Assembly (NCBI RefSeq): GCF_009931435.1
Contig: NZ_CP043414.1
Source of the DNA: Escherichia coli
GTDB lineage: Bacteria > Pseudomonadota > Gammaproteobacteria > Enterobacterales > Enterobacteriaceae
Reading direction: 5' to 3' (one strand)
DNA: 64,000 bases
The position numbers were made by a program, and so were the translations under genes. Positions 14,095 through 58,459 of this stretch are shown piece after piece (position 1 is the stretch's first letter; every line of letters starts with the position of its first letter). The notes under the pieces are model-generated. The model searched no databases. It was given only the letters and a program-made list of their open reading frames with translations, and was not told the DNA's origin.

Positions 14095-14679
14095 TTACTC
14101 CCTGACAGGGTTCGTAGGCCACTCAATATCAGGTGCAGTTGATGTATCAACACGGTTCAGCAACACCCGATATTTTTTCCAGGCTTCCAGCAATGAGGTT
14201 TCTTCCTCCGTTGCGATTTCCAGATCTACAGCATCCTGAAGTGGCGCAATATGCTCACTGGCTACCTGCATCAGGCTGTTTTTTGTTTCTTCCGCCTCCC
14301 GAATCCGGAACAGTTTTTCTGCTTCTGCATCTTTCACCCAGGCTGTACCGTTCCACTTCTGAAACTCCCCTTCCGGCGATAACCAGGTAACATTTTCCGG
14401 TAACGGACCGAGTTCAGAAATAAATAACGCGTCCCCTGACGCTACGTCATAAACCGTTTTACCCCGATGATCTTCAACGAGATGCCACGATGACTCATCA
14501 CTGTTGAAAACAGCCACGAAGCCAGCTGGAATATCTGGCGGTGCAATGTCGGTACTGTTTGCTGGCAGACCTGTATGAGGCGGAATATATGCGTCACCTT
14601 CACCAATAAATTCATTAGTTCCGGCCAGCAGATTATAAATTGTTATGGTCCGTGGTTGTTCACTCATTCTGAATGCCAT
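14095..14679 (-). CDS. tfa: Tail fibre assembly protein Tfa
   Basis: ORF track 194 aa; start overlaps the stf stop by 1 nt; lambda Tfa-like. Confidence 0.85.
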
Positions 14680-30586: not shown

Positions 30587-31612
30587 TTACGCCAGTTGTA
30601 CGGACACGAACGCATCAGGATCAGCCAGCAGCATCAGCGGTGCTGACTGAATCATGGTGAACTCACGCGCCGGATCGCCGGTGGTCACCCAGTTTTTCGG
30701 GTAGCGGGCAGAGGCGTTAATACCTTCGCGCTGTGCGTCCGCATCCTGAATGCAGCCATAGGTGCGCAGACCGCGTGCCTGAGTGTTCCCCAGCACCATC
30801 GTGTTGTCCGGCAGGAAGTTCTTTTTGACGTCGTTTTCCACGTACTGTCCGGAATACACGACGATCGCCGTATCGCCATACATCCCCTTATAGGACACCG
30901 CTTCGCCCAGATCTTTTACCGCTGTCTCCAGCTCGGAATGAGAGCCGCGACGGGTATCCAGCTTCTCCTTGACGGCTTTGAAGGAACGGAACAGCGCCCA
31001 GCCTTTCGGATCAAACACGATGATATTCACCACACCGCTGGCGTTCAGCGCGTAGGCTTCGATATCGTCGGTCGGGTCATACGTGGACTTGTCACGCTTG
31101 CTCCACTCCGTACCGCCGGACTGCGTGATGTTGTTCGCCACACTGCGGCCCATATCCACTTCAACCGGATCGAAGGCTTCACCGGTCATGGTATATTTGC
31201 CCTTAAGCACGGCAGAAACGGCCTGCATCTCTTCGACCTGAGCAATGGCCAGCTCTTCGTCTCGCATGTTCTGCAGAATGATGCGACGGCGGCGGTAAGC
31301 CGGGTCCGCCAGATTCTGTGGATCTTCATCCGGCAGGCGACGCAGGGTCATCTGCGGATTCACCTCATGCTTCGGCTTGACATATCCCGGTGTAAATTCA
31401 GAGGTGGAGCCGCCACGGGAGCGGATAACCTCACCGGAAACAATCGGCGAAACGTACAGCGCCATGTTTACCAGTCCCGGAATTTGTGAGAGATAGACTT
31501 TCTCCGTGGTGAAGGGATAGCTCTCACGGAAAAAGAGACGCAGAAACAGCGGATCAAACTTAAATTTCTTCTCATTTGCCGCCAGCAGCTGGGCGGTTGT
31601 GTACATCGACAT
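30587..31612 (-). CDS. E: Major capsid protein E
   Basis: ORF track 30587..31639; start at MSMYTT gives 341 aa; lambda gpE-like. Confidence 0.9.
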   Translation of the reverse strand: MSMYTTAQLLAANEKKFKFDPLFLRLFFRESYPFTTEKVYLSQIPGLVNMALYVSPIVSGEVIRSRGGSTSEFTPGYVKPKHEVNPQMTLRRLPDEDPQNLADPAYRRRRIILQNMRDEELAIAQVEEMQAVSAVLKGKYTMTGEAFDPVEVDMGRSVANNITQSGGTEWSKRDKSTYDPTDDIEAYALNASGVVNIIVFDPKGWALFRSFKAVKEKLDTRRGSHSELETAVKDLGEAVSYKGMYGDTAIVVYSGQYVENDVKKNFLPDNTMVLGNTQARGLRTYGCIQDADAQREGINASARYPKNWVTTGDPAREFTMIQSAPLMLLADPDAFVSVQLA

Positions 31613-55050: not shown

Positions 55051-55727
55051 TACCGGACATTATCCTGCAGCGTACCGGGATCGACGTGAGAGCTGTCGAA
55101 CAGGGGGATGATGCATGGCACAAATTACGGCTCGGCGTCATCACCGCTTCAGAAGTTCACAACGTGATAGCAAAGCCCCGCTCAGGAAAGAAGTGGCCTG
55201 ACATGAAAATGTCCTACTTCCACACCCTGCTGGCTGAGGTTTGCACCGGTGTGGCTCCGGAAGTTAATGCTAAGGCGCTGGCCTGGGGAAAACAGTACGA
55301 GAACGACGCCAGAACCCTGTTTGAATTCACTTCCGGCGTGAATATTACTGAATCCCCGATCATCTATCGCGACGAAAGTATGCGCACCGCCTGCTCTCCC
55401 GATGGTTTATGCAGTGACGGCAACGGCCTTGAACTGAAATGCCCGTTTACCTCCCGGGATTTCATGAAATTCCGGCTCGGTGGTTTCGAGGCAATAAAAT
55501 CGGCTTACATGGCCCAGGTGCAGTACAGCATGTGGGTGACGCGAAAAGATGCCTGGTACTTTGCCAACTATGACCCGCGCATGAAGCGTGAAGGCCTGCA
55601 TTATGTCGTGATTGAGCGGAATGAAAAGTACATGGCGAGTTTTGACGAGATGGTGCCGGAGTTCATCGAAAAAATGGACGAGGCACTGGCTGAAATTGGT
55701 TTTGTATTTGGGGAGCAATGGCGATGA
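55047..55727 (+). CDS. exo: 5'-3' exonuclease Exo
   Basis: ORF track 226 aa; lambda Exo-like. Confidence 0.95.
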
Positions 55728-55906
55728 CGCATCCTCACGATAATATCCGGGTAGGCGCGATCACTTTCGTCTACTCCGTTACAAAGCGAGGCTGGGTATT
55801 TCCCGGCCTTTCTGTTATCAGAAATCCACTGAAAGCACAGCGGCTGGCTGAGAAGATAAATAATAAACGGGAGGCGGTATGCACAAAGCATCTCCTGTTG
55901 AGTTAA
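55718..55906 (+). CDS. Small hypothetical protein (lambda orf60a-like)
   Basis: ORF track 62 aa; overlaps exo stop. Confidence 0.5.
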
Positions 55907-56070
55907 GAACGAGTATTGAGATGGCACATAGCCTTGCTCAAATTGGAGTCAGGTTTGTGCCAATACCAGTAGAAACAGACGAAGAATTTCATACGTTAGC
56001 CACATCCCTTTCACAAAAGCTGGAAATGATGGTGGCGAAAGCAGAAGCAGATGAGAGAGACCAGGTATGA
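55879..56070 (+). CDS. Small hypothetical protein (lambda orf63-like)
   Basis: ORF track 63 aa. Confidence 0.5.
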   Translation: MHKASPVELRTSIEMAHSLAQIGVRFVPIPVETDEEFHTLATSLSQKLEMMVAKAEADERDQV

Positions 56071-56146
56071 CAACCACTGAATGCATTTTTCTGGCAGCGG
56101 GCTTCATATTCTGTGTGCTTATGCTTGCCGACATGGGGCTTGTTCA

Positions 56147-56362
56147 ATGACACCTCAGCAAGAAAACGCCCTTCGCAGCATTGCCCGTCAGGCTAATTCT
56201 GAAATCAAAAAAGCCAGACAGCATTTTCCGGATAAAAACGTCGATGACATTTGCCGTAGCGTACTAAAGAAGCACCGCGAAACGGTAACGCTGATGGGAT
56301 TCACACCGACTCATTTAAGCCTGGCGATCGGCATGTTGAACGGCGTCTTTAAGGAACGGTGA
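56147..56362 (+). CDS. Small hypothetical protein (lambda orf61-like)
   Basis: ORF track 56081..56362; internal Met (MTPQQEN...) chosen. Confidence 0.5.
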   Translation: MTPQQENALRSIARQANSEIKKARQHFPDKNVDDICRSVLKKHRETVTLMGFTPTHLSLAIGMLNGVFKER

Positions 56363-56460
56363 ACATGAAAAGCAAAATCATCAGGGAGCTACAGGCTCCT
56401 TTTTTATTATTCGCATTTACCCTCAAGCGTATTAACCAACAATTCAGGGATTAATGAAAG

Positions 56461-56679
56461 ATGGCAGACATCATTGATTCAGCATCAGAAATCGAAGAAT
56501 TACAGCGCAATACAGCAATAAAAATGCGTCGTCTGAACTACCAGACTGTATCCGCAACTCATTGTTGTGAGTGTGGCGATCCGATAGATGAGCGAAGACG
56601 CCTGGCTGTTCAGGGTTGTCGGACTTGTGCGAGTTGCCAGGAGGAGATCGAACTTAAGAACAAACAATGGGGACTGTGA
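56461..56679 (+). CDS. DksA/TraR-family C4 zinc-finger protein (lambda Orf73-like)
   Basis: ORF track 72 aa; CxxC...CxxC motif. Confidence 0.7.
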   Translation: MADIIDSASEIEELQRNTAIKMRRLNYQTVSATHCCECGDPIDERRRLAVQGCRTCASCQEEIELKNKQWGL

Positions 56680-56726
56680 TGGCCTCAAAGCAGCAAATTT
56701 CAACATCGTCCAACTGAGGTGTAAAA

Positions 56727-57005
56727 ATGTTCAGAATCATTTTTCCTAACACCTGGTACGTCGACCACCACGGCACTCCCTGCAAAATCCTGCGTTCTAC
56801 CCACAACAAAGTTCACTACATCCGAAAAGGCAGAACATGTATCGCCAGCATGTTCCGCTTTAATCATGACTTTGAACCTGTGAATAAAGCTGATGCAGAT
56901 CGGATAGCAGAAGAGATCGAAACGGCAGAACACATTAAGAAGTTACGTGACATGCGTTCAAAAAGCAGAGGTAACCATGGAATCATACAGCCTCACACTC
57001 GATGA
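56727..57005 (+). CDS. Hypothetical protein
   Basis: ORF track 92 aa; between the traR-like gene and xis. Confidence 0.4.
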   Translation: MFRIIFPNTWYVDHHGTPCKILRSTHNKVHYIRKGRTCIASMFRFNHDFEPVNKADADRIAEEIETAEHIKKLRDMRSKSRGNHGIIQPHTR

Positions 57006-57348
57006 GGCCTGTCAGTTTCTTAAGATATCCAGACCAACCGCCACCAACTGGATACGAACAGGCCGCCTACAGGCAACACGTAAAGATCCAACCAAGCCAA
57101 AATCTCCTTACCTCACAACACGGCAAGCCTGCATTGCGGCGCTTCAGTCTCCGCTGCATACTGTCCAGGTGAGCGCGGGTGATGGCATAACAGAGGAAAG
57201 AAAATGTCACTCTTCCGCAGAAATGAAATATGGTATGCCTCGTATTCGCTCCCGGGCGGGAAACGAATTAAGGAATCTCTTGGCACAAAGGACAAGCGGC
57301 AAGCTCAGGAGTTGCACGACAAGCGAAAAGCAGAACTCTGGCGAGTAG
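56977..57348 (+). CDS. xis: Putative excisionase (HTH, AlpA/Xis-like N-terminus); 3' end uncertain, overlaps int
   Basis: ORF track 56947..57348; internal Met MESYSL..; N-terminal HTH; position upstream of int. Confidence 0.5.
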
Positions 57349-58382: not shown

Positions 58383-58459
58383 TGGCGCGCCCTGCAGGAT
58401 TCGAACCTGCGGCCCACGACTTAGAAGGTCGTTGCTCTATCCAACTGAGCTAAGGGCGC
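58383..58459 (-). tRNA. argU: tRNA-Arg (anticodon UCU, argU)
   Basis: 77-nt sequence with CCA end matching argU by recall; its 3' 45 nt is the prophage attachment repeat. Confidence 0.88.

Follow-up and report, generated by a model that had tools for sequence, protein, structure and literature searches.

Termination-reinitiation coupling of overlapping genes through the four-base sequence ATGA is established in phage and bacterial operons, and Escherichia coli and its prophages encode small hydrophobic proteins of 50 amino acids (aa) or fewer, single-helix membrane micropeptides that were found by ribosome profiling and tagging. Within a 64,000-nucleotide (nt) stretch of E. coli DNA (assembly GCF_009931435.1, contig NZ_CP043414.1; this whole stretch is called the window below) we analyzed a 27-codon open reading frame (ORF), sORF27, that lies at positions 56067-56150 of the plus strand in a lambdoid prophage and has the translation MTTTECIFLAAGFIFCVLMLADMGLVQ. 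The type I toxin peptides (Ibs, ShoB, DinQ, TisB, and Hok) are comparable to it in length and hydrophobicity. Our reading, which is drawn from comparative sequence data and to which we give a probability of roughly 0.6, is that sORF27 is a real, translationally coupled small gene, that its product would be a hydrophobic micropeptide, and that termination on it would feed ribosomes to the gene that follows.

No bacteriophage has been studied more than lambda. The exo-xis region of its genome, to which this locus corresponds, is being taken apart one gene at a time, because it influences lysogeny, prophage induction and the behavior of Shiga-toxin phages. In the accessible part of the exo-xis literature the region is listed with orf60a, orf63, orf61, orf73, ea22, ea8.5 and orf55 together with two ORFs of 7 aa and 31 aa from ribosome profiling, and sORF27 is not among them (PMC8614690).

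Genomic position and coupling of sORF27

The prophage lies at argU of the E. coli chromosome and adjoins a tRNA-Arg gene (tct, 58383-58459) and intD. Its genes run from the repressor-side genes through kil, gam, bet, exo, orf60a, orf63, sORF27, a 72-codon (71-aa) gene, a 31-codon ORF (sORF31), orf73 (TraR-like) and further genes to int, and sORF27 is located in the early leftward (pL) operon's exo-xis region. The segment 55700-56500 is 97% identical to phage lambda and is present in 180 phage records and in 3,624 of 5,426 complete E. coli genomes.

A first-pass annotation of the window had described here a 27-codon ORF with an ATGA overlap at both ends, placed between two lambda-like small genes, and the sequence confirms this description. 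The upstream gene is orf63 (55879-56070, +; DUF1382, 63 aa; phrog_292, PF07131), for whose protein a nuclear magnetic resonance structure has been solved. It ends in CAG GTA TGA, and the A of GTA together with the TG of the stop codon (56068-56070) forms the ATG of sORF27, so that stop and start overlap in an ATGA at 56067-56070 (+). At the other end, the sORF27 stop (TGA, 56148-56150) overlaps the ATG (56147-56149) of the 72-codon gene (56147-56362, +; phrog_303), a full-length homologue of lambda 'orf61', in a second ATGA (56147-56150, +) that reads GTGA in about a quarter of the loci compared below. The early genes around it overlap one another in a chain on the same strand, bet-exo-orf60a-orf63-sORF27-72-codon gene-sORF31. 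A purine-rich sequence resembling a Shine-Dalgarno (SD) element, GAGAGAGA (56053-56060, +), stands 6 nt 5' of the sORF27 ATG and pairs with the anti-SD at -5.6 kcal/mol (spacing 7), compared with -4.7 kcal/mol for the start of the 72-codon gene, whose own SD is weak. The start of that gene is also polymorphic, with ATG in about three quarters of the loci and GTG in about one quarter (87 of 340), a change that is silent in sORF27 (CAA/CAG).

Given this arrangement, the following course of events can be proposed. Ribosomes finishing orf63, or in other loci a methylase gene (dam), would terminate at the TGA within ATGA and restart on the overlapping ATG of sORF27, aided by the purine-rich SD, and a 27-residue, very hydrophobic and slightly acidic peptide would be made. 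Termination at the second ATGA or GTGA would then hand the ribosomes to the 72-codon gene, which has a weak ribosome-binding site of its own. Most probably the peptide would be a single short helix, placed in or on the inner membrane, with a role in early lytic development. Translation, the coupling mechanism, the membrane location and any effect on the host are what we infer from the letters of the DNA.

Coding signature of the sORF27 frame

Given that no deep homologues of sORF27 were found in the collections searched, polymorphism was used as the test of coding. The set comprised 340 loci with 149 distinct haplotypes from phage records, IMG/VR, metagenomes and representative genomes; earlier samples contained 82 loci at first and 268 loci in a permutation run, and the conclusion rests on the 340-locus set. 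The frame of sORF27 (frame A) was compared with the frame of the 72-codon gene (frame B), which in the gene model of phi24B and PHROGs is extended upstream over 56081-56146 (+) to give a 93-aa 'Orf61' and overlaps sORF27 there.

Over 56071-56146, 19 of 37 substitution events are synonymous in frame A, where about 10 would be expected (expected fraction 0.269; P=0.0013), as against 11 of 37 in frame B (P=0.46). Where both frames are open (56084-56146), the corresponding counts are 15 of 29 (P=0.0034) and 9 of 29 (P=0.49). The synonymous-site pattern, on which the first-pass annotation had set a refuting condition, is consistent with coding in frame A. The commonest variants (56138, 56078, 56105, and 56090) leave the frame-A translation as it is and change that of frame B; frequent variants that are silent in A give T>A, stop>G, F>S, H>Y and S>P in frame B, and the frequent non-synonymous changes within sORF27 itself are conservative, such as F8L. 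A permutation version of the test (268 loci) returned P=0.013 for sORF27 and 0.29-0.95 for other frames. With the same design and sample the neighboring genes gave P=0.01 (72-codon gene) and P=0.44 (orf63), so that the sORF27 signal is on par with that of accepted genes and the power of the test is limited at this depth. Per codon, the log-likelihood of codon usage amounts to -4.10 for frame A and to -4.0 to -4.1 for the neighboring genes, whereas frame B, with -4.55, resembles an off-frame. Synonymous enrichment, as left by purifying selection, is found in frame A only, in a sample that is shallow.

Two antisense ORFs (55949-56134 and 55989-56153, both on the minus strand) were considered and rejected, as a minus frame that shares the wobble positions of frame A mimics the signal, just as it does in the accepted neighbors, and the other minus frames look neutral. 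An RNA element or a leader/attenuator was rejected as well: by minimum free energy, 56040-56175 folds less stably than shuffled sequences do (z=+1.24; a fold at least as stable is reached by 184 of 200 shuffles), which leaves no stable fold, and no Rfam family matched 55500-57300 at E<=1.

Conservation and the dam-type loci

The 27-codon ORF is intact in 333 of the 340 loci and encodes an identical peptide in 283 of them, while the ATGA on the start side is kept in 338 and the ATGA or GTGA on the stop side in 339. Among 176 phage records the peptide is 100% identical in 138, including lambda, 434 and Stx phages, and sORF27 occurs in more than half of the complete E. coli genomes (about 3,100 of 5,426, with roughly 4,000-5,500 copies). 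Conservation of the frame in related lambdoid phages had been named at the outset as a check; all copies are at least 94% identical in DNA, and because of this conservation alone proves little. When the peptide was searched by tblastn in 50,697 phage records, only lambda-type copies and one spurious match came up. Seemingly distant matches from a search with the protein of the 72-codon gene (51-72% identity) were excluded as frameshift-ridden assemblies or an IS3-disrupted copy.

Lambda-type sequence was also encountered under foreign labels. It is present in metagenome-assembled genomes labeled Segatella copri and Nanosynbacter and in the record of 'Campylobacter phage CJLB-4' (MW057783), which is 97% identical to the window over 800 bp, and DUF1382 proteins labeled Pseudomonas, Streptococcus, Helicobacter and Staphylococcus are likewise of lambda type. 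In all these cases mis-binning or contamination with lambda or E. coli DNA is the probable cause.

A second upstream context, itself widespread, is seen in phage PhiR30_1 and in E. coli DG341-1 and E69, where a gene for a 185-aa N6-adenine methylase (dam) takes the place of orf63. The ATG of sORF27 is there the very point at which similarity to the window sets in; it is overlapped, in an ATGA, by the stop of the methylase gene, and a GGGAGG, a strong SD, is found 5 nt 5' of it, at the position that the SD occupies in the orf63 context. Of the 5,426 complete E. coli genomes, 310 carry the dam-sORF27 junction, and sORF27 is intact in all 47 dam-type loci from IMG/VR and genomes. The start-side ATGA is in this way kept in two unrelated upstream contexts, orf63 and dam.

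These findings bear on the view that the region is an untranslated spacer in which the open frame and both ATGA motifs are coincidental and conservation reflects the recent common ancestry of phage modules. When the 76-nt spacer was shuffled with both flanks fixed, the frame stayed open in 31% of cases, which together with the high identity of all copies, the omission of sORF27 from the RefSeq and lambda annotations and the loss of its start or stop in a few loci would agree with such a spacer. Shuffles that were open and also reached a grand average of hydropathy (GRAVY) of >= 1.6 made up only 0.26% of the total (0.8% of the open ones), however, and a spacer would account neither for the frame-specific synonymous enrichment and gene-like codon usage nor for a mosaic junction placed at the ATG, with an independently supplied SD and the ATGA kept. 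The region is moreover less structured than its shuffles, as expected of translated RNA. We consider the spacer very improbable.

The predicted peptide

The peptide has a GRAVY of 1.62, a Kyte-Doolittle value of 2.33 over 19 residues and an uncharged core of 16 residues (C6-A21). E5 and D22 are acidic and Lys and Arg are absent, which gives a net charge of -2. Its composition would suit a short membrane helix or a peptide embedded in the membrane, and the hydrophobic segment is long enough for spanning the bilayer or embedding in it. The first-pass annotation had suggested a real small membrane peptide; the gene status gains support from selection, codon usage, the mosaic junction and the lack of a competing RNA structure, while the membrane part follows from composition, with no Lys/Arg flank. 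No family match above noise was obtained in PHROGs, NCBIfam or PDB sequence searches, and the peptide falls into no Pfam family; a sub-threshold match to a transmembrane segment of MtrF reflects composition only.

An assignment to the type I toxins was considered and not adopted. No sequence similarity to them was found, Rfam reports no antisense RNA family over 55500-57300 (E<=1), and a simple scan detected no promoter-like site facing the ORF, the only minus-strand sites (56435-56406 and 55627-55600) lying outside it and being no commoner than in shuffled sequence. The gene is embedded in the pL operon and is not a stand-alone, tightly repressed locus.

Alternative readings of the locus

Several observations weigh against sORF27 as a gene for a functional peptide. 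The discordance test, which sets events synonymous only in A against those synonymous only in B, is weak (18:10 and 14:8, P=0.08-0.09). Among the 340 loci, two have ATA in place of the ATG, four end one codon early, and one has lost the stop together with the downstream ATG. No relative below about 94% nucleotide identity was found in the phage, IMG/VR, metagenome and species-representative genome collections, and the copies are confined to Escherichia; because the family is this shallow (>=94% nucleotide identity), the selection test is limited to 37 events. The peptide has none of the Lys or Arg residues that would make up the usual positive-inside flank, and for a transmembrane helix its uncharged core is on the short side. 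The new lambda ORFs of the region that are credited to ribosome profiling (Liu et al., 2013, as reviewed in PMC8614690) are only the 7-aa and the 31-aa ORF. To the same side belong two types of loci that do without sORF27.

The first type is represented by phage SfI and E. coli FDAARGOS_1251, in which a 250-aa gene is followed by the 72-codon gene, starting MTIEHNNALRSI and provided with a GAGG SD of its own. These loci carry neither sORF27 nor the 93-aa extension, and these phages manage without the peptide, which shows that sORF27 would be dispensable where the downstream gene has its own ribosome-binding site. Given that the SfI-type homologues begin at the 72-codon ATG, this codon is the true downstream start and the 93-aa model is unneeded. 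Divergent orf63 paralogues (75-83% identity) likewise carry neither sORF27 nor the 72-codon gene, and they are uninformative on sORF27 because they run directly into ea22-like genes.

The second type is Escherichia sp. E1V33 (NZ_RHJI01000010.1), which lacks the N-terminus of sORF27. A 251-aa DGQHR-domain gene is ATGA-coupled there, with a GGAGG SD, to frame B, and the product of 93 aa (MTISSGGLHILCAYACRHGACSMTHQPENALRSI...) carries the same GLHILCAYACRHGACS segment as the 93-aa model. Two readings of this locus are possible: either 14 nt were deleted within sORF27, joining its start to frame B, or the junction lies at the frame-B ATG. Among the 5,426 complete E. coli genomes, none has this junction. 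As judged from the E1V33 sequence, expression of frame B is possible and the small peptide can be dispensed with, and the locus fits the idea that the preserved feature is the delivery of ribosomes to the 72-codon gene.

Such delivery could be the whole purpose of the ORF. It would then be a coupling bridge, translated to carry ribosomes over the 76-nt gap to the 72-codon gene, and its peptide would be functionless and degraded. The ATGA overlaps at both ends fit a bridge well, as do the weak SD of the 72-codon gene (-4.7 kcal/mol) with its GTG start in 87 of 340 loci, the substitution of a GAGG in SfI-type loci and of an in-frame fusion in E1V33, and the finding that in the sequences examined sORF27 was always present together with the 72-codon gene. 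A bridge needs an open frame only and no particular amino acids, however, and the sequence constraint on sORF27 counts against a pure bridge for this reason. The synonymous enrichment (P=0.0013), the conservative nature of the frequent non-synonymous changes and the identity of the peptide in 283 of 340 loci all speak of such constraint, and the extreme hydrophobicity, reached by 0.8% of open shuffles, would be left unexplained. We regard a bridge without a functional product as unlikely.

Frame B could also be the real one, with the downstream protein being the 93-aa 'Orf61' from the ATG at 56081 and sORF27 an untranslated overlapping frame. This model is annotated in many records, the PHROG 303 profile spans it, and its ATG is coupled and equipped with an SD in E1V33. 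In the window, by contrast, that ATG directly follows an in-frame TGA (56078-56080, +) and has no usable SD (-3.8 kcal/mol at a spacing of 14). The absence of synonymous enrichment, the common variants that cause F>S, S>P, H>Y and T>A, and the off-frame-like codon usage all disagree with a coding frame B; PGAP and the SfI-type homologues use the 72-codon start, and the E1V33 junction has no counterpart among the complete genomes. We judge that frame B is not coding in lambda-type loci, and an Orf61 extended in this manner is quite improbable as an explanation of the locus.

Improbable to a still higher degree is dual coding, in which the same 66 nt would yield sORF27 and, in another frame, the N-terminally extended Orf61 as well. 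That both frames are open in most loci, that frame B is expressible in E1V33 and that in lambda it is open from an upstream ATG can be cited for it, but frame B looks neutral, has no ribosome-binding site in lambda-type loci and is missing from the SfI-type homologues.

Annotation status and the nature of lambda orf61

The ORF had been called unannotated, which holds for part of the databases. It is absent from lambda J02459 and from a 2025 lambda record, from the records of phages 434, phi24B, Turner and mEp332, and from RefSeq PGAP, which leaves 56071-56146 empty; the exact 27-aa sequence is already deposited in GenBank and UniProt as a 'hypothetical protein' (A0A0A2SGE8_ECOLX, ETI79567.1, and others), having been gene-called on at least 981 contigs. 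The 90% cluster that contains it also includes two unrelated 428-aa glycosyltransferase-like proteins, a clustering artefact. The peptide string was not found in the searched literature, which did not extend to the lambda ribosome-profiling paper, nor in two small-ORF supplements. sORF27 is sporadically predicted in databases and unrecognised in lambda biology.

Lambda encodes the identical peptide at J02459 complement(30925..31008), wholly within the annotated orf61 (lambdap37, complement 30839..31024). Two lambda-specific changes stand out when the window is aligned with lambda, 434 and an E. coli prophage. The frame-B stop at 56078 reads GGA in place of TGA, which opens frame B up to the annotated start of lambda orf61, and the A6 run at 56207-56212 (+) has become A7, which frameshifts the 72-codon gene. 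The extra A is common to independent records of the lambda lineage (PV340536, HK630, DE3, and others). The 61-aa lambda orf61 product is composed of 32 residues of frame B over sORF27, the 22 true N-terminal residues of the protein of the 72-codon gene (MTPQQENALRSIARQANSEIKK) and 7 out-of-frame residues. Since the first change opens frame B upstream and the second truncates the real 72-codon gene, lambda orf61 is a frameshifted chimera. The downstream gene, introduced by the first-pass annotation as orf61-like, is indeed a homologue of lambda orf61, with the twist that the lambda gene is itself the altered version. Lambda Orf61 seems truncated and unfolded according to earlier work on the region (PMC8614690).

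Gene models of the downstream gene differ accordingly between records, with the 72-codon form in PGAP, 434 and mEp332 and the 93-aa form from the ATG at 56081 in phi24B and Turner; most of sORF27 falls inside the 93-aa phi24B model, vb_24B_7c. The 71-aa protein is often named 'hypothetical protein' or 'cell division protein ZapA' by NCBI, and no Pfam or NCBIfam match was obtained for it here. The name ZapA looks like a propagated annotation and not like evidence.

Implications for the exo-xis region

The overlap of annotated genes with sORF27 extends to published experiments. The delta-orf61 mutants of lambda and phi24B were made by replacing the annotated orf61 and vb_24B_7c sequences (PMC6213356); in lambda such replacements take out sORF27 completely and in phi24B for the greater part, and the published plasmids 'bearing orf61, orf60a and orf63' carry sORF27 as well. 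Because the mutants delete both and the plasmids carry both, the phenotypes and footprints assigned to orf61 are inseparable from those of sORF27. Given that the 72-codon gene of lambda is frameshifted and sORF27 is intact, it can be speculated that the peptide, and not 'Orf61', is the active product of the locus in lambda, and that the delta-orf61 phenotypes in lysis-lysogeny and host survival and the footprints credited to orf61 stem at least partly from a membrane-acting micropeptide. We offer this as a doubtful suggestion.

If sORF27 is a real gene, the gene list of lambda would lack a gene found in more than half of the complete E. coli genomes, and lambda 'orf61' would be an artefact of a frameshift and an overlapping frame. 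Of the 93-aa model on which structure prediction was based, 22 residues would probably never be made. The locus would also provide a compact natural case of a small gene that is possibly both product and ribosome relay.

Other features of the surrounding sequence

The next small ORF of the coupled chain, sORF31 (56359-56454, +; 31 codons), begins with a GTG that overlaps the stop of the 72-codon gene as GTGA, and a 29-aa form could start from the ATG at 56365. Within it lies a terminator-like hairpin at 56383-56401 (+), AGGGAGC-TAC-GCTCCTT followed by TTTTATTATT, and none of the first 82 loci differed over 56385-56408. Possibly the hairpin acts as a terminator of the pL operon, passed by polymerase under N antitermination.

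Upstream of orf63, the start of orf60a (DUF1317) is ambiguous between an ATG at 55724 (60 aa; lambda and PGAP) and one at 55718 (62 aa; the 434 and phi24B records), both of which overlap the end of exo. At 56977-57042, a helix-turn-helix (excisionase-like) gene upstream of intD is called an incomplete pseudogene by PGAP in a 99.5%-identical genome, from which the prophage may be excision-defective. Far from sORF27, an Rfam match to IS009 was recorded at 14138-14336 (-) with 227.8 bits.

Comparison with known systems

The closest described entities are lambda orf61 and phi24B vb_24B_7c, which occupy the same DNA as sORF27 and differ from it in reading frame, theirs being the one without the coding signature. 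A further one is sORF31, a neighboring tiny ORF of the same coupled chain that was left out of classical annotation, although it is annotated in some phages and, unlike sORF27, is not hydrophobic (GRAVY -0.18). By length and position it is probably the 31-aa 'orf2313' of lambda ribosome profiling, which is reported as translated (PMC8614690, citing Liu et al., 2013), whereas sORF27 is unmentioned in the literature examined.

In its size, its one hydrophobic segment, its omission from annotation and its lack of a family, sORF27 resembles the small hydrophobic proteins of E. coli and its prophages. It differs from them in having no positive flanks (net charge -2) and in residing within a phage early operon rather than standing alone. 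With the genes joined by ATGA termination-reinitiation in phage and bacterial operons it shares the four-base, same-strand overlaps within a chain of overlapping genes. The distinction, as far as the coupling can be read from sequence, is that a whole 27-codon gene fills the gap between two neighbors here, and that this gene may be both product and relay.

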